IMG/VR virus record: IMGVR_UViG_3300032218_002424
Coordinates: 45,064 to 109,063 of that record
Origin: a virus
Lineage: Duplodnaviria; Caudoviricetes
DNA length: 64,000 bases
Direction: 5' to 3' (one strand)
How positions within the stretch are numbered: the first letter of the stretch is position 1; the number at the start of each line of letters is the position of its first letter. Under the pieces are notes generated by a model. The model was not told where the DNA came from, ran no database searches, and saw only the letters and a list, made by a program, of their open reading frames with translations. Shown here one piece after another: positions 31,686 to 64,000 of this stretch. The position numbers were made by a program, and so were the translations under genes.

Positions 31686-32008
31686 TGTTAAAGCCAGTAT
31701 TTGAAGATGCAAAAGAATTTTCATGTAGGGATTTATACTTGCATTCAGTTAGTGCCCCTTCAGGAAGTAAAATATGGTCAGCATGCCATGAAGTAGCTCA
31801 CCTTCTTATTGAAAAAAATATATCTTATGGAGATTCAGCATTAAACCCTGCAAGGATATTTTCACAGGCGGATTCAACAGAACAATTAAAGGTTCGCATT
31901 GATGACAAGCTTAATAGAGTTATAAATAATCAAGGATATGCTGGAGATAACGATATTGATGATTTGATTGGCTATTTAATCTTGTTTAAAATTGCCTTAC
32001 AGAATTGA
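31685..32008 (+). CDS. Nmad1/DUF1599-like all-alpha NTP-PPase-fold protein
   Basis: KN.SYGDS...RIDDKLNR...DLIGY. Confidence 0.7.
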   Translation: MLKPVFEDAKEFSCRDLYLHSVSAPSGSKIWSACHEVAHLLIEKNISYGDSALNPARIFSQADSTEQLKVRIDDKLNRVINNQGYAGDNDIDDLIGYLILFKIALQN

Positions 32009-41426: not shown

Positions 41427-41657
41427 ATGAATATAGACGAACAAAAGGTAAACAAGTTTATTAAAAGATTTAAAACGGGAAACCAAGAAGCTTATTGGGA
41501 TAATTACACATTGATTATTTGGCGGCGAGATTCTTCTGGATTCAGTAATGTGCGAGGATTGTATCGCAATAACTGTTGGGGATTATCAGAAAAAATCTCA
41601 ATAGGAGATAACGGAATGTGGGAGCTACCTCACAGATATGTCAAATATATTAAATGA
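41427..41657 (+). CDS. Hypothetical protein
   Basis: AAGGA RBS before the ATG at 41427. Confidence 0.6.
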   Translation: MNIDEQKVNKFIKRFKTGNQEAYWDNYTLIIWRRDSSGFSNVRGLYRNNCWGLSEKISIGDNGMWELPHRYVKYIK

Positions 41658-41949
41658 TCTAGGAATAGACCCAGAAGATTTAGAATGGTGGGACCTTGCA
41701 GCATGCAAGGGTATGGATACAAACTTGTTTTATGACAAGTATGAGTCTGACGTGAACATTGCTAAAAGTATTGATCAGGCATGCTTATCTTGCCCAGTAG
41801 CAAAGAATTGTTTAAAAGCTGGCATTGAAGGAAATGAATATGGAATATGGGGCGGAATATATTTAAACTCTGGTTCAACAGATAAAGCACGGAATATTCA
41901 TAAGACAGAATTAGTATGGAAACAGTTGAAGGTTAAGCATGGACATTAA
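41638..41949 (+). CDS. whiB: WhiB-family Fe-S transcription factor
   Basis: W...AAC...F...C.SCPV...CL...GIWGG. Confidence 0.92.
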   Translation: MSNILNDLGIDPEDLEWWDLAACKGMDTNLFYDKYESDVNIAKSIDQACLSCPVAKNCLKAGIEGNEYGIWGGIYLNSGSTDKARNIHKTELVWKQLKVKHGH

Positions 41950-53282: not shown

Positions 53283-53430
53283 TTAGATCAAAGTTATCCA
53301 CAGAGTTATCCACACCCTGTGGATATTTTTGTGTCATTTGATCTAAGTTATCCACAGAGTTATCCACAGCTTATACTATAGAAAATATTCTATTAGACTA
53401 TTGTATTATATATAATTAGATATACATGAT
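53283..53430. other. Candidate replication origin: DnaA-box cluster plus AT-rich tract
   Basis: TTATCCACA at 53294, 53306, 53348 and 53360; reverse TGTGGATAT at 53318; AT-rich from 53371 to 53430; lies at the strand switch. Confidence 0.75.
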
Positions 53431-53728
53431 ATAGAGCATCCATTTTACTCCACCGTAATCCATTTTGCTCCACATTACGCCATATCATATAATATTGGAC
53501 ATGTCAATAGTCCAGGGATATATAAAATTTGCCCGTAATGGAGCATATTTGCCCAGATCTGTCAAGCATTTTCTGCAGATTTTATACAATTGTTATATAA
53601 TTATAATAGATTTAGTATATATTCTGCAGGATATGTTGACAAATTCCAGTGATTTTGGTAGTATTCCCGTAAATAGGGCATTTTGCCCGCAGTCCGTAGA
53701 GAAAAAGACAATTTGGACATTTGGGCAC

Positions 53729-54374: not shown

Positions 54375-55453
54375 TTAGTTATCTTCAATTAAAGACATTC
54401 TATCTTTAATTAGTTTTGCTATGAGGTTGTGTGCCTCAATATTTTCGGTTTCGCTGCCACCCCATAAAAGCTTTTGGGCCTGGGCCAGGACTGAGTCTAC
54501 ATATTCATCACTCATCTTCATCTTCTTCCTCCTCATTATATTCAATGGCATCAATATCCATTAGCCAATCGCTAATGTGATCGTCAAGTGTTTCTGTGCC
54601 ATATTCTAATGTAAATCCATTTGAATCTGCTTGCTCCCAAAATAGTTTCCAGACTTCTTCGTCAGTCATGTTAACCTTGTACTCTTCATCATCTCTGAAG
54701 TTGTTTAACATGCTCTTGGTAACATCCCAGGTCCATACCCAAACCAGGGACGGGAACACAGGAAGTTTACCAATCTTATCAATAATTACATTAATGTCTT
54801 TGTATACATCTTGCATACGTGTTTGTTCTTGTAGGTCCATTAGTTGTCTTTCTCCAATTCTGCTTTAGCAAATGCGATTGCATATGTTAGTTGGTATAGT
54901 TCTCCATATGTCTCAAGGACACCTTCCCAGTACTTCCGCTCCATTGAATCCATTGCTTCGCCTGAATCTTCTTCTGCTTCTTGTGCCATTTCTAGTTGTG
55001 CCTCTGCCTCAACCATAAGCGTCTTCAGGTGCCCGTGCATGATGTCCGCCCCGTCCATGCCCAAGATAACTTGGCGGGACAGATATGGGTCTAGTGTGAT
55101 ATCCATATTATTCCTTTCCATTTAGCAGTAGTATACCATTGGCCACTGACATTAAATGCCTGGTATTTAAAATCTCTGCTTCCTTACATCTATAAAAATG
55201 ATGTTCATTTACATAATCAATCTCTTCTAGGTCTTGCATTAAACTAATCTCATGTAGTTTCATATACTCTAATAATGAATCTATTTTAACCTTCATATCC
55301 ATCAAAGTATCCCTCCGCCCAAAGTCCTTGTAAAAATTCTGATGCTTTATTTAATCCTTCTGCCAGTTCTGTTTGGGCAGGTGGGATATAAATAGAAGAA
55401 TCTCCTACTGATTTAATCATATGGTTTAAATCTTGCAAATCATAGCCTAACAT
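54375..55453 (-). CDS. Five small early-type ORFs (54375-54515, 54508-54840, 54840-55121, 55108-55305, 55286-55453)
   Basis: Coupled acidic ORFs; the first and last were read manually. Confidence 0.6.
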
Positions 55454-55579
55454 TATTCCGCCTTTCGTATATGAGTATTATATATCAGATGACTGACATT
55501 TGTCTACGTAAATTCCTGTGATTTACACCACATCCCCGTAAGAGAGAAGATCCGTCCCCAGCCCTTAGCAGAGCTGAGA

Positions 55580-55700
55580 AAGGGAAGAACCCTGGCGGTC
55601 TCTCCAACACCAGGGTTCTTCAGGGAACGTTAGGCTGCATCCACACTATGCATATTTAAAGACTTGGTCTGACGGGACCTGAAAGCCTCACCTAACTTCA
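55580..55700 (-). ncRNA. Candidate small RNA
   Basis: TGGTATAAT at 55706-55714; closing stem GTTAGG/CCTAAC; terminal hairpin AAGAACCCTGG/CCAGGGTTCTT; no convincing ORF. Confidence 0.4.
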
Positions 55701-55718
55701 AATTAATTATACCATATT

Positions 55719-57291
55719 TCAGTTGACTGTAAAGTCATGGTATTCTTGAACCTCTTCCTGATAGTTACAGAATGATTCAAATGAATGCCAATTGCCTTCA
55801 TCACAAACCATTTGTGTAGTCATATCAATTTCTACTGTTGTGTCCCAGTATTCTTGATTAGCATTTGCAAGATAGATTCCGAAACCAGTTTCCTCGTCCC
55901 GTCCTTCTTTAGTTAATTGGTCCATGATAATACGTGTTGAATATGGAATGTCACCCATATCAATACGACGCTTTGCAGCCCGCAGTGCTGCAGATAAATC
56001 CTCACGCCAGGATGTTTCACCCCAGTGTGAATATAAAACTAAGTTTGGCATATCCAAATCAGTTTTAAATACAAAGTTAATCCGTGCTCCCATTTGAAAC
56101 CTCCGCCATTTCTTTTTCTTGTTGGGCCGCTAATTCTACTATCTCATAAGACCATTTGTCAAGGGCCTCTTTAAATTCATCTAAATGATGTCCACAAAAG
56201 AACAGGCTGCCAGCCATACCTTTTGCTTCATAGAGTGCCTGAGCAACTCTACATTTGTCGCATCCAGTCCATGTCAAATTATCCCCGATTCAATTAAATC
56301 TGCGATATCTTGGTAAGTGTGTACAGGTTCGTCATTACGATCCATAAGCTCAGACAATGTTTCGACAAGCAATTCTCGTGCATGTCTCACACCATCATCA
56401 AAGCCTTCTCTATAGTCTGACATATTTATTCTCCATATGGGTGATACGGCTCAAACTCTGAAACATAAACTTCTGTTAGATTATACTTCTCACGTAAGTT
56501 TGATACTTTCTCAATGCTACCAGTTCCGATGTTGAATGTCAACGGTTCTGTAGATGCTTCTGGGTCCAGACCCATGATGTTGGCATCCCACACCGCCCTT
56601 TGAAAGGCGATGCGGGACGGAGCGGAAAGTTCAAAGTACATTAGTAAGCACCTTCCTCAACACGTTCAACATCATGGTTGGTAACCTGAATCAATGCATC
56701 ATATGAATCAACGGTTAGATTAGTTGCAATAAAATCTTCAATTGCATCCATGTCTCCACCAAGTTCAACTTCAACAGTTAAATCAACACGTACCCATGCA
56801 GTGTATTCAACTTCCTTGGTTAGAGGAATATCAAAGATTTCTGCAATTGCAGTCAATGTCTCTTGGTCTTCTGAATCAGCAAATGTCTCTTCAAGCAATG
56901 TACGCAACTGGCTTTCCTTACGGTACCACTCGTTTTGCTTTTCAGTTAGACTCTTGTACCAGCGACGGCCTTGGTCAAGGGAATATTCAATCTCTGTAAC
57001 CTTTTGAACGGGATAAGATACTTCATCCCCGTCAATCTTCTTATATGTTACAAGTAGATTAGGATTATATGTCTCGTTAATTGTTATTGTTGTTTCCATG
57101 GTTTCCTCTTTCTGTGTGGGTATAACGGGTATTGTAGCATCTTCCACTGACAATAAGGTAGTATTTGAACCACATAAACATGTGATATCTGTCACATTTG
57201 GGGTATATCCTGATTTAAGTATATATTCAATTAAAGCATTGCATTCTCCATTACAGACCCAAGTATATTTAAACCATTTTAGATCCATCAT
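55719..57291 (-). CDS. Early-type ORFs (55719-56093, 56077-56277, 56274-56423, 56426-56641, 56641-57291)
   Basis: Coupled ORFs with RBSs; 55719-56093 has the common phage 'YSHW' motif. Confidence 0.6.
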
Positions 57292-57397
57292 TGCTCCTCT
57301 ATTTGTTCTGTTTTAGGATTCCAATATCCAAATCCACAATTAAATGTACAAGTATAAACCCCTGGAACATCTGAACATAACCAATTATGTTTATGCA

Positions 57398-58150
57398 TTA
57401 TGCACCTGCTTTCCTATATTCAGGCACCTTTGTATCAAGGTACTGCTTATGGTCTTCACATTGTTCAACTGCTTCTAGGTCAGCCTCGCCAAGCCAATGG
57501 CATGCGGAGCAAATCTCACCGCAGTCATTTTCGCAATACTCCATGCAATCATGTTCATCACAATCACGGCATCTAGATTCATACTCACCATGGCTAATTA
57601 CTACACCACGAAGAATCTCTAGTTCACCACCCCAACCAGTCTCTTCCTCATATGATAAAGTAAAAAGTAGATTAGGATATTGAGCAGACAACTTTTCAAG
57701 GGCGGGAAGTGGAATACCCCATGCTGTATTAAAGTTATAATATACAACTAAGTTATCACCATTTTCAGTAGGACCTTCCATATATGTCTCTGGATATTCA
57801 TTATCCTCAGATACAGCAACATCCCATTTTGTTCCCCATTCACGATTATTCCATGAATACCAAGAATTATCTACAGATGCTACCTTCATTGTATCTGCCC
57901 ACCAATTTGGGTCATTTACATCTAATTCAGAACGCTTAGGCTGTGCCTTATATGCTTCCAAATCTGTTGGAGCAATGATATTGCGAAATGAAAATATAGG
58001 ATTAATATACTTAGTTTGTTTTACACCAAATGCCAAATCACCTGTTGCTTCAATATAATCCACAAATGGTGTGTTCATTTGTTCTACTAGTTTTGTTACT
58101 TGTTCTGGCTTACCTTCAATTGTTAAACCATTATATACCCAGTTTGGCAT
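57398..58150 (-). CDS. DUF1281/YubB ferredoxin-like family protein
   Basis: MPNW start (ATG 58150, AAAGGA RBS); WY.WN...WGTKW, FNTAW..P, YEEE; Cys-rich tail. Confidence 0.75.
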   Translation of the reverse strand: MPNWVYNGLTIEGKPEQVTKLVEQMNTPFVDYIEATGDLAFGVKQTKYINPIFSFRNIIAPTDLEAYKAQPKRSELDVNDPNWWADTMKVASVDNSWYSWNNREWGTKWDVAVSEDNEYPETYMEGPTENGDNLVVYYNFNTAWGIPLPALEKLSAQYPNLLFTLSYEEETGWGGELEILRGVVISHGEYESRCRDCDEHDCMEYCENDCGEICSACHWLGEADLEAVEQCEDHKQYLDTKVPEYRKAGA

Positions 58151-58291
58151 AATCTTCCTTTCTTGAGAGATGATGGAATTATACACCACCCCACTGACAT
58201 TCACAAGCATTTCCAGTGGTTTTTTTCAGGTTCCCGTATGATAAAGATCACACCCGTAAGAGAGGGCATCAGCTCGTATCTTTTGCGGGCA

Positions 58292-58325
58292 TGCATATTT
58301 ATGCAGCTTTATGCATATTTATACT
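58292..58325. promoter_or_regulatory. Tandem ARG-box-like operator (second pair at 61520-61553)
   Basis: TGCATATTTATGCA-N6-TGCATATTTATACT; 20-bp period at both loci. Confidence 0.6.
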
Positions 58326-58328
58326 TTG

Positions 58329-58402
58329 CGATTCCGACGGGACTTGAACCCGCAACCTCTACCGTGACAGGGTAGCGATCTAACCAATTGATCTACGGAA
58401 TC
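58329..58402 (-). tRNA. tRNA-Asp(GTC)
   Basis: GATTCCG/CGGAATC; CTACC-CTGTCAC-GGTAG. Confidence 0.93.
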
Positions 58403-58405
58403 AGA

Positions 58406-58434
58406 TGAGCAGTTTTAATTCGTGCTCAGGAATT
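58406..58434 (-). ncRNA. Repeated H-type pseudoknot, copy 3
   Basis: AATTC-CTGAGCAC-GAATT-AAAAC-TGCTCA. Confidence 0.7.
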
Positions 58435-58439
58435 TATTT

Positions 58440-59489
58440 TTATTTCGTTAGAGCAAGAACTTGCTTAACGATTTTATTTTTTTCTGCGGTAACAACTGGG
58501 TCGAATCCAGATGCACCTGCCATTAGCGAATCGCCTGCTTTACGAGCAGTGCGGAAATAATCCAAACGCTCAGTTAGAGCATTTACAACGCCCCAAGCAG
58601 TGCCCTTGATATTAGCATTGGTTGGCGAATTGTGATACAACTCATCAAGCAATACAACTTTATTTTCCCATTTAGTAAGAGCAACCTTAGCCGCATCTTT
58701 TTCAGGCTTTGGATAAAGTGCTTTCACAATTTGTGAGAACTTTGCATCGGTTACGGAAATCTCATAGAGTTCCTTAGCCTGCTTTTCGAATTCGTCCATA
58801 TAACCAAGAGTTAAGCCAAGAGCCTCACGAGCAGCGAGAATCTTACCATCAACAGTTTGGGTGTGGCGAATCTTGAAAGACTGCTTAGCCTTCTTCATTG
58901 CAAGGTTAAGAGTATTTTGGCACATTACACGAACAGGAGTAATTGCAGACTGAACTGCAACTGAACCATCGTGAGATGTCCAGACGATTAGATACAACTT
59001 AGTTTCATCTGCTGCACCATTAGGGTCAAGCACCATTGTGCGGGGAATTGAAAGAGAGCCATAGACTACACGACCATTCTTTAGAGAACCCGCAGACTCC
59101 CAATAAACATCTGGGTTGCCATCGTGAAGGTTATCCGCAAACGAAAATAAATCCTCATTTTGGACAGTCTTATAACGAGAGCCAACAGTTGCAAGGACAT
59201 TCTTTGTACCTGCATTGTAAGGGTCATCACGAACAACAAGAAAATTCTCGCTGACTGAATTGTAATTTGCAGGTAGCAAATCTGCAACAGGCTCTAACTG
59301 AACATTCCAATTAGAGAGTTTAGCACCATCAAGCATTTGTGCAGTTGTAACTGCCTCATCTTGATTGAACACCTTATTGGCAAAAGAGTGCCAAGCAGGA
59401 TTGGTACGAAGATTTACAGCAAGAGATGCTGAGCCATCTTCGATTTCTGACTTGTGAGCAGTATTGCCCACTGGAGATTGAACTGACAT
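58440..59489 (-). CDS. DUF932 / TIGR03299-family phage-plasmid protein
   Basis: PAWH, Y..VQN, ESAGSL..G, SHDGS, TPVRVMCQNTL, IRHT, GTAWG..NA.TE. Confidence 0.9.
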   Translation of the reverse strand: MSVQSPVGNTAHKSEIEDGSASLAVNLRTNPAWHSFANKVFNQDEAVTTAQMLDGAKLSNWNVQLEPVADLLPANYNSVSENFLVVRDDPYNAGTKNVLATVGSRYKTVQNEDLFSFADNLHDGNPDVYWESAGSLKNGRVVYGSLSIPRTMVLDPNGAADETKLYLIVWTSHDGSVAVQSAITPVRVMCQNTLNLAMKKAKQSFKIRHTQTVDGKILAAREALGLTLGYMDEFEKQAKELYEISVTDAKFSQIVKALYPKPEKDAAKVALTKWENKVVLLDELYHNSPTNANIKGTAWGVVNALTERLDYFRTARKAGDSLMAGASGFDPVVTAEKNKIVKQVLALTK

Positions 59490-59766
59490 ATGAGTTATCC
59501 TTTCGATTAGATTGGCTTAATTATAACAGGTGCCACTGACATTGTATAGTTAATTTAGGGAATGTCTCAAGCTTTGAGATGTGATCAATCTCACAGATCT
59601 GGGGGTTGTGGACGACACGCCGTAAGCCTGTGGATAACCCCGCAGATATACGGGCGGCTAACCGATTTGTCAAATCTATTTTGAATTTCTAAACAAATAA
59701 ATAATTAATGCAAGGGGGCTAATCAAAAATCCAATTAGCACCCAAGCAATTAATTCACCGATAACG

Positions 59767-62700
59767 TTATACATTCACCTTGCGGTTTCTATGATTAGCA
59801 AGAACATCCATTGGATAATAAACAGCCATTGTCTTCTTCTTCTTTAAACTATCATATACATATGCTTTTACATTACCTTGAAACTTATCAACATTAGACC
59901 AAACTAATTGTGATAGTCCTTCTTTATCAAGACCTTCATCAGAAAAAATTCTGATGTCATTTGCCTTGACTTCATCATAGATGTCAATACGAAAACGCAT
60001 TTTGATCCATTTCGCTAGTAGGGATAGAAAGAGCAGTTTTAACTCATGCTCAGGAGTATTGTAACATTACTTACCGATTTTGACCATTGCCCAACGAAGC
60101 CCGCCCTCAGTCATTAGACCGAGCTTTGTTAGATTAGGACGAACAGCAATAATTTCTGTAATTGTTCCTGTTACGCCTGACTTGCCAGTTGTGAAGATGT
60201 CGCCCTTTGAGTAGAAACGACCTTTTGTTACATCTAGGATTGGAGACATTTTATTTTCTTTCTGTTAGAAGTTGGTTGAGGGTTCTTACTTACGACATTG
60301 GGCGAGGACTCCCTCTAAACTGCCCCTGTTTCGATTATTTAGTTAGAGATACTTAGCGATTGACTTCATAGTAGAAGCATTAACTGTTTCCTCATCTGTC
60401 ATCTTTAAGATGTTGAGGGCGTTGTTAATTTCCTCCACGATTTCACGATAAGTGTGGTCGTGCATAGTTGTGAAATCACGCTGTGGTTCAGCAGGGAAAT
60501 CGCCTTCTGCTACTGTTAGGTCAAAATCTACATTGAGAGTTTTGTTCCAAGAACGATAGTTTGTGCGAAGGTTCTCAGCCTTAGCAAAATTAGCAATAGC
60601 ATACTTACCAATTTCCTTACGCCATTTTTCCATAGCCTTTTGGAACTTTGCTTCGTTGCTTGCTTCATTTTCTTTATCAGACTTGAGAGTTGCCAACTTT
60701 GTTTCCAAAGCCTTGATTACCTTTGGTGTTGCCACCTTTACTGTGATTGCTCTTGTCATTTTATTTCCTATTCTTTGTGTGGGTTGTTGTTGAGAGTATT
60801 ATAGCAGAGGCTACTGACATAGCCCCTGCTATTATTATTTACTTAGAACTTTACTGTTGTAAAGCGTTCCTGTCCATTTACATCAAGCAAAACACGAGTT
60901 GTGTTTGCGTTGATTGGTTCGATAGCAACGATTGTCCCTGTTACATTTGACTTCTGTGTTGTAAAGAGGTCGCCTACCTGATAGGTTTGTGTTCCGATTG
61001 TCATTTGTTTCCTGCTTTCTGTTTGTTGTTGATAGAGAGTATTATAGCGGATAGGGCTGACATTTATCAAGCCCTATCCCACTATTTGAGATAGATTTGG
61101 TGTGATAAAAATCACGCCAATTCTAGAAACATTTCTGTTCCGCCTGCGTTAATAAATGCTACCATTGAAACTAATTCATCATGAGTTGTTGTTTCGGTAA
61201 TTGACAAGCATTCATCTACTGCCTGCTTATTCATTTCAATAAACGCCTCGCCCATCTTTGCAATTTGTGGAGCATAACGGGAGGAATTAGAAATACGAGA
61301 TACGAACTTAATGTCCTTATGTGTAAATGGATAAAGAGTAAAGCCTGTTGTTGTCATTTATTGTCCTTTGTTTGTGTGAATAAGAGTATTGTACCGTAAC
61401 CCACTGACATTTTCTAATCCATTTACGGCGTGTCGCAAGATTTGTGAGATTTCTCACAGGATCCAGGGTTTTCCACAACTCCACTTAAACCTGTGGATAA
61501 GTCCTCAAAAGAGCGGGCCTGCATATTTATGCATTACTCTGCATAATTATTTTTATATTTATTTTTGCGAGTATATTTTTTCTTATTGCGAACAGGAGTT
61601 GCGGCGTTACTACGCCGCAGCTCTTGTACACGTTTTACTTTTTCCATAATTTTATTCCTCATAGTATTCGTCATCTTGACACCATGCTTCCAAGTGGTGG
61701 CTTTCAATAATTGCCCATGCAGGTGCATAAGTTTCACCACGCCAAGTTATACCTTCAGGCAAATCAATTTTGCGTTCGGTGCTATCTTCCCAGTATGCAT
61801 CAATAGCATCAATACATGGTTGCACCATTGAAAGTGGAACGGGTGGATAGTGATTAGAACGCAATTGTATTGCAATTGAACTTTCTAAATCTAAATTCAT
61901 TGTAGCAAGATCAGAGGAGAGATTATTACCCATTATTATTTACCTACCTTTGTGTTGTAATTAATTGCGTCATAGAATCGGGTGACATCGAAATTAGAAT
62001 TATCTTTGCCAAACATTACTGCAAACTCTCTCGCTAAGTATCCATATACTGCGGGGTGAGTTTTATCCTGCACACTAGCAAGAATTTCAGCGGTTGAAAT
62101 ATAGTCTTTACGGCTCATCATTATTTTTCTACCACCCTTCTACCTTCACGATAGAATATTTTAGTGTAACACTTGCCTGAAGGCGTGTAGAGATTAACAG
62201 TAGAATATTTATCTGCGAATCCCCAGTCAATAAACTTTGCAAACTCTTTATGAGCCTGCAATTCATCTGAGTATTGGAATACACCGAACGGCGTTGTATT
62301 CTCATCATAGGTTACAGTAATTTTATACATTATTATTCACCGACCTTTACTGCAACAGTTGCATAGAAATCATTACGGAAGATACCCTTGCCGTCATAGG
62401 TAGGGCGGACTTTAACGAGATAGGCTTCGGTATTTTCTCCATACCAAACACCATCACGCTTTTCAGCATATTGGATAATTCCGTCTAATCCTTTGCGGGA
62501 ATTAGAGCGATAGTATTTACCTTCTAAGAGGCTTTCGATATTGTAACAGTTAGCCATTGTGACTACCTTCTTTCTTTTGATTGTTAGAGGACATTGTAGC
62601 AGATAGCACTGACATCGCTTCTGCCTTTGAGTTTTGGCGTGTCGCTAGGACATACGCCTTATATTCATCTAGGTTCATTTCTGACCTTCTTTCTACTAGA

Positions 62701-63717
62701 GGCAATTTATGCAATTGCAAGACTTAGAACGGATTAAGTAGCGGAATAATTCCATACGAGTATATTTATCTAATCCATACGATGACTTAACGCCACCATT
62801 GTGATATTCATGAACGATAGTAGAGAATAGAGTTTCATTTAGTGTAGTCATTTTGACCACCTTTCTTTTTTAGGTTATGCTGAAATTATAGCAGAGGGGT
62901 CTGACATTTCTCTACTTACTAGCCAGTAATTCCAAATATTGAGACGCTCAAGGGTGTGAGTTGCACCACATTCCAGGTGTGATAAATATCACGCCATAAG
63001 AGACACGCCCGAGCCCGTGTCTTTTGCGGGCCAGCTTGATTTTGTCAAGCCAACACGCCGTTACATTCCTAAAATATATTCGGCGGGATCTTCATCGGCG
63101 GGAACACAATCACACACCATTACATCAAAGTCATTGTTATCACCAAAGAAAACAAATCCTGCACCATTACATTCCTCGCAAGGAATTCCAATTACATCTT
63201 GTAGATTACCCATTATTATTTCTCCTCTATATCTGATACATATGTATCTAAGCCTTTTGTTTTATAATCAAACCAAGAAATTGCGGAATCATAGTCTTCC
63301 GCTTCTATTGTTATGAAAGTTGTAAATTCAAATAGTGGCATTAGTCTGCCTCCTTAGTATTAAATAAAGCACCTTCTTGAAATAAACCAATTTCAATGCT
63401 TAGCATTTCATCTGGAGTGGCTTCAGATAAATCTACCCAACCAGCACCATTTTCATTCATACGAAAAATTTCAATGTAACCCATTATGATTACTCCCAAC
63501 TTCTAGTAGTAGCAATTACTACACGATTAGAAGGGACATAATTTGGAAGGTATTCCAAATTAGTTTCGAGGATAGTTCCTCGCTTTGCTAGAAGGTCTAG
63601 CATTTCATTAGCAGAGTATTCATCTTTTACGAGAACACCTAAGCAAGTACCGAAATTTTTGCTTAGTGGATAAGCAGGGTCGGTATTGTATTCGATTTTA
63701 TAACTTAGTGAAAACAT
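59767..63717 (-). CDS. Small early-type hypothetical ORFs (59767-60000, ORF ending 60067, 60343-60759, ORF ending 60843, 61112-61357, 61652-61933, 61936-62121, 62121-62330, 62333-62557, 63490-63717 and shorter ones)
   Basis: Most have AAGG/GAAAGG RBSs downstream of the repeated promoters. Confidence 0.6.
60031..60057 (-). ncRNA. Repeated H-type pseudoknot, copy 4
   Basis: ACTC-CTGAGCAT-GAGT-TAAAAC-TGCTC. Confidence 0.7.
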
Positions 63718-64000
63718 TTTGTTTTCCTTTCTTTGAGATAACCTTTATCTCTAATTCTTTATAGTGTAACTATAACACACACCACTGACATTTTGACCCC
63801 TTTTTCGGGCGTGTCGGAAATCTTTTTTTGTGATTTACGCCACATCCAGGCAATAATACAAATCGGACATAAGGTACAAATCGGCCCCCAAAAGATACGG
63901 GCCATGCTGACAATTGTCAACACGACACGCCGTTATTCCTGGATTTCTTTTAAAAGCTTTTCGATATCTTTTAAAATCTCTTCTAATTCTTTATCATTCT

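Follow-up and report, generated by a model that had tools for sequence, protein, structure and literature searches.

Ordered boxes upstream of PafBC-type promoters in one arm of an IMG/VR phage genome, with a possible input from a host Crp-type factor

Closest described systems and the phage genome

The stoperators of the cluster A mycobacteriophages, which are temperate phages, all represent one repressor site of 13 bp, whose orientation follows transcription. The PeSL cassettes of T4-type phages, each a sigma-70 early promoter joined to a terminator stem-loop, recur as composite units in the gaps that separate small, variable genes of early type (PMC2839356, PMC4122927). The PafBC-dependent "sigma adaptation" promoters of mycobacteria follow the in-vivo consensus tGTCgg(N10)tA(N3)T, in which PafB reads a GTC triplet at -23 to -28, replacing the -35 contact (PMC8635444). 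The TGTGA-N6-TCACA-type CRP motif is conserved across phyla (PMC10187061). At class I promoters (E. coli lac-type) a TGTGAT-N4-ATCACA palindrome lies upstream, and its possible distances are whole helical turns apart, in the -61.5/-71.5/-82.5 series. The sites of WhiA occur on either strand with variable spacing, and according to structures sigma-A region 4 (TTGACA) and the WhiA C-terminal domain (GACAC) read the same GACA core (PMC10243135). Here we describe intergenic cassettes in a 64,000-nt stretch of the virus record IMGVR_UViG_3300032218_002424 (the window), in which a promoter resembling the PafBC type is preceded by up to five further boxes that look like protein sites.

This 109,063-bp IMG/VR record is classed as linear and 93% complete; the window covers its right 64 kb, with a GC content of ~37%. 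The phage encodes a WhiB-family protein (41638-41949) and a DnaE-type polymerase 57% identical to the DnaE of Streptomyces cluster-BE phages, so an actinobacterial host is likely despite the low GC content. A search for the host by scanning bacterial genomes with the phage WhiB returned just spurious 13-residue matches, in Amycolatopsis. The cassettes lie in an arm (53.8-64 kb) of small minus-strand genes, mostly without Pfam matches, that is probably a host-takeover region. Our Pfam scan found no known DNA-binding domain in ~30 arm proteins, and the phage encodes no Crp-type helix-turn-helix (HTH_Crp_2) or cNMP_binding domain and no WYL domain. Megablast gave no match of the arm region to cultured phages, and an Rfam scan matched tRNA only.

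A hybrid promoter and the boxes ordered upstream of it

The motif TGTCAG-N10-TAnnnT was found in 13 copies in the window (0.99 expected). Of these, 11 are minus-strand copies within 55130-63790, in every case followed after 25-45 nt by a Shine-Dalgarno sequence and start codon. In the relatives, 50 viral contigs (836 kb) recovered through the DUF932 protein (54-86% identity), it occurs 427 times forward and 3 times in reverse; the TGTCGG variant behaves likewise (58 forward, 1 reverse) and other fifth bases are near background. The family consensus, AATGTCAGTgc..tcTGcTAtAAT, has an extended -10 and no conserved -35 hexamer. TTGACA is found 80-160 nt upstream of the promoter in the family contexts and so not at the -35 position. 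The motif fits the 22-nt PafBC-type pattern tGTC(g/a)g-N10-tA-N3-T with the GTC invariant, the consensus being mycobacterial. The likeness to the mycobacterial promoters (PMC8635444) covers the 22-nt geometry TGTC(A/G)G-N10-TAnnnT, the invariant GTC, a canonical -10 and the lack of a -35, whereas the phage set differs in numbering 11 per genome in one arm, in usually having an extended -10 (TGn) and in carrying CRP-type and other boxes upstream.

In four relatives (L019, L032, L039 and L042) the -26 element reads TGTCGG, the exact mycobacterial PafBC consensus, and is often preceded by GGACA(A/T)A, which creates a GACA-N2-TGTC inverted repeat; the TGTCGG relatives retain the same upstream boxes. 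Distant relatives of 50% GC have no promoter motif and almost no boxes. Streptomyces phage Wakanda, which of the cultured relatives is the closest in DnaE, likewise has 0 copies of the motif, so the architecture is not general to that wider phage group. Six perfect TTGACA-N17/18-TATAAT promoters, at 32005, 34580, 41198, 46226 and 49894 of the window and at genome position 35520, are all on the plus strand, so the two arms of the phage use distinct promoter classes.

A preliminary description of the window had reported a shared rough order of boxes in six intergenic blocks of the arm, and motif maps bear this out (blocks at 58.2, 59.6, 61.1, 61.5, 63.0 and 63.9 kb). With distances counted from the first T of TGTCAG back to the middle of each box, the distal slot (~100-150 nt) holds a GGCGTGTCG-NN-TTGACA unit or an overlapping TGCAT-N4-ATGCA pair. 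It is followed by a GCCCG-N9-CGGGC-type word that forms a small GC hairpin (~80-115 nt), by TTATCCACA (DnaA) or GGCGTGTCG boxes (~60-100 nt) and by a TGTGA-N6-TCACA palindrome (41-57 nt). The proximal slot (22-39 nt) is occupied by CGACACGCC, TCTCA-N5-TGAGA or TTGAG-N3-CTCAA, and then comes the promoter. The sequence of boxes was thus described correctly but in the opposite direction: since the 53.8-64 kb genes are on the minus strand, the order first given is the reverse of the order of transcription. As with the stoperators, many copies of a short asymmetric word occupy actinophage intergenic regions; the difference is that several different boxes in ordered slots are found in this phage. 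The individual cassettes, A to G, are given in Table 1.

In agreement with the preliminary description, which saw no simple duplications, the cassettes are not whole-length duplicates of one another. Its further statement that the DNA between the motifs is dissimilar needs correction, the cassettes being mosaic. Contiguous blocks of 30-50 nt are common to A and B, B and F, C and E, and A and C (local-alignment z 9-19), whereas nothing is shared in most of the remaining pairs.

Enrichment over shuffled DNA had been proposed as a check, and we compared the 9-kb arm with 500 Markov shuffles, counting the CRP-like palindrome and the G-box (GGCGTGTCG) at up to one mismatch. These strongest boxes were far above the shuffles, with 9 CRP-like sites against 0.44 and 8 G-boxes against 0.41, and none of the 500 shuffles reached either count. 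All 8 G-boxes of the 109-kb genome are inside the arm. Outside it, CRP-like sites number 3 in the remaining ~100 kb, which is about chance, and a candidate among these three, ahead of the phage whiB start (41619), was dropped on that ground. The GCCCG-N9-CGGGC word (3 against 0.03) and the G-box/TTGACA composite (2 against 0.01) were also enriched. Taken individually, the remaining signals are modest: TGCAT-N4-ATGCA, here called ARG-like, 4 against 0.64 (3 of 500 shuffles reached 4), TCTCA-N5-TGAGA 3 against 0.35 (3 of 500 reached 3) and perfect TTATCCACA 2 against 0.14 (5 of 500 reached 2). TTGACA on its own showed no enrichment in the arm.

Conservation in related phages, likewise proposed as a check, was analyzed in 384 non-redundant promoter contexts from ~45 related viral contigs, with the same sequences reversed as control. 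The boxes were far above this control. CRP-like sites numbered 206 against 8, G-boxes 146+92 (forward+reverse) against 6+6, and the S-box ATGTCCGATTTG, discovered by unbiased 8-mer enrichment, 89+32 against 1+5. The TCTCA-N5-TGAGA palindrome was found 25 times (1 in the control), TTGAG-N3-CTCAA 19 times (3), TGCAT-N4-ATGCA 42 times (5), the hairpin word 15 times (1) and DnaA-type boxes 30+55 times (10+11). Perfect TTATCCACA accounted for 35 occurrences in the 384 contexts, mostly 40-120 nt upstream and often in convergent pairs. Slots recur across the family: TCTCA-N5-TGAGA and TTGAG-N3-CTCAA at 20-40 nt, the S-box at 20-60, CRP-like sites at 20-80, DnaA boxes at 40-120, ARG-like palindromes at 80-140, and TTGACA at the distance stated above. 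When 31 distinct orthologous spacers ahead of the DUF932 gene were aligned, the boxes stood out as conserved islands in otherwise unalignable DNA. No published description of this arrangement was found in the literature searched; judged from sequence, the regulatory architecture is real, conserved in the family and undescribed.

The CRP-like sites follow the family consensus aTGTGAt..tt.ATCACA, and their centres cluster at 26.5, 35.5-37.5, 46.5, 55.5-57.5 and 68.5 nt from TGTCAG in the family. The phasing is helical: the Rayleigh R reaches 0.74 for a 10.5-bp period (n=153) and is close to zero for one of 8 bp. Kinship of the sequences was handled by collapsing them to one CRP-like site per downstream-gene cluster, after which the phasing was still detected (R=0.52, p=0.002); the window alone gave R=0.65 (p=0.03). 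Placement on the same face at whole-turn steps, which the sites have in common with the palindromes of class I promoters, marks a factor in contact with RNA polymerase. The case for cis-regulation and against a role of the sites as a sponge for host factors rests mainly on it.

The asymmetric boxes have a common GACA/TGTC core, present in GCGTGTCG, ATGTCCGA, TTGTCAA, the GGACAAA abutting TGTCAG, and TGTCAG itself. The G-box contains GACAC, is enriched in both orientations and has a conserved word of 9-11 nt. TTGTCAA had been listed as a separate site; it is instead one half of a composite with GGCGTGTCG, as GTGTC-N3-5-TTGACA occurs 36 times against 0 in the control and the inverse TGTCAA-N2-5-GACAC 38 times against 1 (~100 kb of family spacers). 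We considered whether TTGACA might supply the -35 for another promoter farther upstream and rejected this, TAnnnT being found at 16-18 nt in just 7 of 70 cases; these few are true consensus promoters in some relatives. The WhiA/WhiB-activated promoters of Streptomyces (PMC10243135, PMC3781837) resemble this arrangement in that GACAC lies in the G-box on either strand, with variable spacing and often beside TTGACA, and the phage does encode a WhiB-family protein. They differ in that the phage word is 9-11 nt and not 5, that the neighbouring TTGACA has no -10 in 63 of 70 cases and that the composite is not seen as a host element in 401 sampled genomes.

Two further labels had to be revised. The half-sites of TGCAT-N4-ATGCA match the ARG-box core type and resemble the best S. 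coelicolor boxes listed in PMC5839063. However, "ARG-box pair", the name first given to them, fails on geometry: ArgR operators consist of two contiguous 18-20-nt boxes 0-3 nt apart (PMC5839063), and the palindromes of cassettes C and F overlap with centres 10 nt apart. The reported (G/A)CGGGC word is present but makes up one side of a small hairpin, which is found in both orientations. The distal region after TTGACA folds slightly better than shuffles (minimum free energy -8.65 against -7.04, p=1e-4). Classical terminator-like sites, 12 against 7.2 in shuffles, are not above chance. We also considered the G-boxes as arms of RNA hairpins; just a minority form short inverted pairs (24+20 against 6+4). 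The full inverted unit is found in just 6 contexts, and those six fold with a mean z of -2.8.

The promoters also coincide with points of gene shuffling. The blocks of homology that the arm shares with the relatives have changed places, 13% of block pairs standing in the opposite order, and 37 of 312 block 5' ends fall within -8 to +3 nt of TGTCAG (4.6 expected, maximum 14 in 1000 trials). The moving unit is therefore promoter plus gene, the upstream cassette not being inherited along. In this respect the arm is like the PeSL cassettes (PMC2839356, PMC4122927), which are repeated composite units between small, variable early-type genes and lie at shuffling breakpoints. It differs from them in having a promoter of the -26 type in place of the sigma-70 early promoter, a weak stem-loop, and up to five further boxes stacked in order. 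Two neighbouring small genes, at 60067-60249 and 60843-61007, have a common 44-nt block of 77% identity (60161-60204 and 60931-60974) and are probably paralogues, each with its own promoter.

What may read the boxes

Our preferred reading, held with moderate confidence, is that the spacers act as combinatorial cis-regulatory regions for which a host Crp-type factor is the best-supported input. The protein-DNA assignments and the direction of regulation we infer throughout. Each transcription unit would start at a hybrid promoter that combines an extended -10 with TGTC(A/G)G at about -26 and lacks a -35, the geometry of the PafBC "sigma-adaptation" promoters. A Crp-family dimer bound to its aTGTGAt-N4-ATCACA site on one helix face would serve as a class-I-type activator or modulator contacting RNA polymerase, and because the phage encodes no Crp-like protein, host Crp/GlxR is the likely reader of the palindrome. 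The other slots would tune individual promoters, through TCTCA-N5-TGAGA, TTGAG-N3-CTCAA, an S-box or a G-box in proximal position, DnaA boxes or G-boxes in the middle, and a G-box plus TTGACA or TGCAT-N4-ATGCA pairs in distal position, then a weak hairpin. The GACA/TGTC core of the asymmetric boxes is also the one that sigma-region-4-type helix-turn-helix domains and PafB (GTC) read, and such factors may bind here. A further role of the distal part may lie at the 3' end of the mRNA that precedes it, and the repeated promoter/cassette units are also gene-shuffling points between relatives. The preliminary description had offered promoters that integrate host signals as one of two possibilities. 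The phased CRP-type palindromes, the fixed slots and the lack of a phage Crp favour that part of it; the ARG-box, TTGTCAA and PafBC labels on which it also drew are weaker than stated.

Several results weigh against the combinatorial reading. If the usual distance between -10 and start is assumed, the CRP-like centres would be near -54.5/-64.5/-74.5/-84.5, ~3 bp away from where class I sites classically lie in E. coli, and the phage core promoter differs from class I promoters in not being of the -35/-10 kind. The offset may reflect a different register on a -26-type promoter or a different transcription start. Promoters with CRP-like sites have cores that are just marginally weaker (p about 0.03-0.05), and 146 of the 384 contexts are without any of the boxes. 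A PafBC-type reader in the phage host cannot be assumed, since a WYL-domain match was found in 0 of the 5 smallest sampled Actinomycetota genomes (G010, G018, G054, G369 and G391; 1.2-1.3 Mb), which are possibly incomplete and need not include the phage host. The domain was found in a Corynebacterium control, and streamlined actinobacteria may lack PafBC-type regulators. The same five genomes all gave HTH_Crp_2 matches, three of them above cut-off, and WhiA is present in two. Lastly, the GGCGTGTCG-NN-TTGACA composite gave 2 matches in 401 sampled Actinomycetota genomes and 1 for the reversed control; one of the two is in an unpublished genome (G231), and the conclusion of rarity is independent of it. 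On this sampling the composite is not a general actinobacterial element, and its near absence makes a phage-specific reader a live alternative for that box.

The same thought can be applied to all or most of the boxes, which may be operators for phage-encoded regulators, small arm proteins or proteins delivered with the virion, that time the switching on and off of the arm, the likeness to host sites being partly coincidence or mimicry. We consider this unlikely. The confinement of the G-boxes to the arm, the enrichment of the composite in family spacers together with its rarity in actinobacteria, the S-box, which is strongly enriched family-wide and has no host counterpart that we could name, and the WhiB-type factor of the phage all favour it. 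It has to contend with arm proteins in which Pfam recognizes no DNA-binding domain, and with a palindrome that has the canonical CRP consensus, a motif which different phyla share (PMC10187061), in a phage without a Crp-type protein; moreover, if the arm is early, its promoters cannot need proteins that are still unmade. Very unlikely, in our judgement, is an account in which the units are chiefly recombination junctions and boundaries between mRNA 3' ends and promoters, as in the T4-type PeSL, and their fine content is secondary. Such an account draws on the block ends at TGTCAG, the order reversals, the mosaic cassettes, the folding of the distal region and of the six inverted units, and the PeSL precedent (PMC2839356, PMC4122927). 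Shuffling explains the repetition of the promoter but not the phasing of the palindrome or the fixed slots of six other boxes, and the chance-level count of classical terminators and the restriction of the full inverted unit to 6 contexts also weigh against the account.

The second possibility in the preliminary description was a transcription-factor sponge, and we judge it highly improbable that the cassettes are decoys that titrate host Crp, DnaA, WhiA and ArgR-like regulators as the genome replicates, reprogramming the host without a phage protein. Near-consensus sites are indeed present within 9 kb, including three perfect TGTGA-N6-TCACA and two perfect DnaA boxes, the G-boxes lie on both strands at variable distances, and the TTGACA composites without a -10 could hold sigma-region-4-type readers unproductively. 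A sponge, however, does not need its sites to be locked in position or phase to promoters, as the CRP-like, TCTCA-N5-TGAGA, TTGAG-N3-CTCAA and S boxes are; ~9 CRP-like sites per genome are few, and all sites are in the single arm that carries the special promoters. It is barely plausible that the conserved words act at the RNA level, as 5' leaders, as small RNAs or as processing sites, and not as DNA sites. The spacer at 55499-55720 does fold with z = -3.2 and weak hairpins follow the distal TTGACA, but Rfam recognizes nothing besides tRNA, and the boxes lie upstream of the promoters and are conserved in sequence, in either orientation, with no evident covariation. Palindromes spaced by N6 are, in addition, typical of protein dimers.

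The combinatorial reading can be extended, in a form that we regard as unlikely, to an arm that works as a "sigma-adaptor" hub. TGTCAG, GGCGTGTCG, TTGACAA, ATGTCCGA and GGACAAA would then be variants of one GACA/TGTC core, bound by PafBC-, WhiA/WhiB- and sigma-4-type readers that share ~150-bp platforms with Crp and DnaA. The takeover genes would fire when DNA-damage/single-stranded-DNA, cAMP and cell-cycle signals coincide, a multi-input decision module in a lytic actinophage, possibly helped by the phage WhiB. Gene control is little known in phages of uncultured, streamlined freshwater-type actinobacteria, and this family appears to run a whole arm from promoters that copy the host DNA-damage (PafBC-type) design, each with a phased cAMP-receptor-type site and additional boxes in order. 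If host factors read the boxes, phage development would be coupled to the damage, nutrient and cell-cycle state of the host. The family would then offer a natural set of ~400 sequence-diverse promoter variants for the study of sigma adaptation together with Crp. The arm extends to actinophages the PeSL idea of regulatory cassettes as shuffling units.

Positions of the features and neighbouring elements

Table 1. Promoters, cassettes and boxes of the arm, in window positions; distances in nt or bp are upstream of TGTCAG
Feature	Position	Strand	Remarks
PafBC-type promoter, cassette A	63769-63790	-	motif match
PafBC-type promoter, cassette B	62885-62906	-	motif match
PafBC-type promoter, short spacer	62593-62614	-	motif match; one reverse G-box at 62636-62644
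PafBC-type promoter, cassette C	61388-61409	-	motif match
PafBC-type promoter, short cassette D	61041-61062	-	motif match
PafBC-type promoter without upstream boxes	60798-60819	-	motif match
PafBC-type promoter, cassette E	59520-59541	-	motif match; ahead of DUF932 gene
PafBC-type promoter, cassette F	58178-58199	-	motif match
PafBC-type promoter within end of upstream open reading frame	57131-57152	-	motif match
PafBC-type promoter, cassette G	55477-55498	-	motif match
PafBC-type promoter, last in arm	55130-55151	-	motif match
Cassette A: G-box + TTGACA composite, hairpin, S-box, CRP-like, reverse G-box	63791-63932	-	map (63.8-63.93 kb): G-box 137, TTGACA 127, hairpin 103, S-box 74, CRP-like 46, reverse G-box 22
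Cassette B: G-box + TTGACA composite, hairpin, G-box, two CRP-like, TTGAG-N3-CTCAA	62907-63060	-	map (62.9-63.06 kb): G-box 149, TTGACA 139, hairpin 116, G-box 99, CRP-like 79 + 56, TTGAG-N3-CTCAA 39
Cassette C: TGCAT-N4-ATGCA pair, GGCCCGC word, two DnaA-type boxes, perfect CRP-like, reverse G-box	61410-61533	-	map (61.41-61.53 kb): TGCAT-N4-ATGCA 127 + 117, DnaA 87, opposite DnaA 64, CRP-like 41, reverse G-box 22
Cassette D (short): CRP-like + TCTCA-N5-TGGGA	61063-61111	-	map (61.06-61.11 kb): CRP-like 46, TCTCA-type 22
Cassette E: TTGACA, hairpin, TTATCCACA, G-box, perfect CRP-like, TCTCA-N5-TGAGA	59542-59690	-	map (59.54-59.69 kb): TTGACA 129, DnaA 92, G-box 76, CRP-like 46, TCTCA-N5-TGAGA 31
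Cassette F: TGCAT-N4-ATGCA pair, hairpin, CRP-like	58200-58327	-	directly after tRNA-Asp; map (58.2-58.33 kb): TGCAT-N4-ATGCA 109 + 99, hairpin 82, CRP-like 45
Cassette G: structured 220-nt spacer, 12-bp hairpin, CRP-like	55499-55718	-	CRP-like 26.5 bp from promoter
CRP-like palindrome, 1 mismatch	63829-63844	.	46.5 bp
CRP-like palindrome, 1 mismatch	62978-62993	.	79.5 bp
CRP-like palindrome, 1 mismatch	62955-62970	.	56.5 bp
Perfect TGTGA-N6-TCACA	61443-61458	.	41.5 bp
CRP-like palindrome, 1 mismatch	61101-61116	.	46.5 bp
Perfect TGTGA-N6-TCACA	59580-59595	.	46.5 bp
CRP-like palindrome, 1 mismatch	58237-58252	.	45.5 bp
Perfect TGTGA-N6-TCACA	57181-57196	.	36.5 bp
CRP-like palindrome, 1 mismatch	55517-55532	.	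26.5 bp
Composite GGCGTGTCG-NN-TTGACA, cassette A	63915-63931	-	
Composite GGCGTGTTG-NN-TTGACA, cassette B	63043-63059	-	
G-box GGCGTGTCG	63808-63816	+	reads CGACACGCC along transcription
G-box variant GGCGTGTCT	63001-63009	-	
G-box GGCGTGTCG	61427-61435	+	
G-box GGCGTGTCG	59613-59621	-	
Perfect DnaA-type box TTATCCACA	59629-59637	-	
Perfect DnaA-type box TTATCCACA	61492-61500	-	TTTTCCACA opposite at 61469-61477
GCCCG-N9-CGGGC-type hairpin word	63884-63902	.	inverted copies 63013-63031, 58272-58290
Overlapping TGCAT-N4-ATGCA palindrome pair	58292-58315	.	10 nt apart
Overlapping TGCAT-N4-ATGCA palindrome pair	61520-61543	.	10 nt apart
TCTCA-N5-TGAGA palindrome	59565-59579	.	promoter-proximal slot
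TTGAG-N3-CTCAA palindrome	62939-62951	.	promoter-proximal slot
S-box ATGTCCGATTTG	63859-63870	-	family-wide; absent from the preliminary description

Adjoining the end of the arm is a non-coding region of ~500 bp that looks like a DnaA-dependent replication origin. At 53283-53440, two tandem 32-nt repeats hold four perfect TTATCCACA boxes and a further box is inverted; a very AT-rich stretch follows. The 220-nt minus-strand spacer at 55499-55720, whose folding is given above, contains a 12-bp hairpin (GAAGAACCCTGG...CCAGGGTTCTTC) and may represent a small RNA or else a strong 3' end. A repeated word of ~25 nt, GAGCAG-TTTTAA-yTCrTGCTCAGG on the plus strand, was found at 58405-58435 and 60028-60057, in both cases directly after the stop codon of a minus-strand gene. 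The tRNA-Asp gene (58328-58402), flanked by the DUF932 gene and cassette F, is the one tRNA gene within the minus-strand arm; all six others are plus-strand genes.

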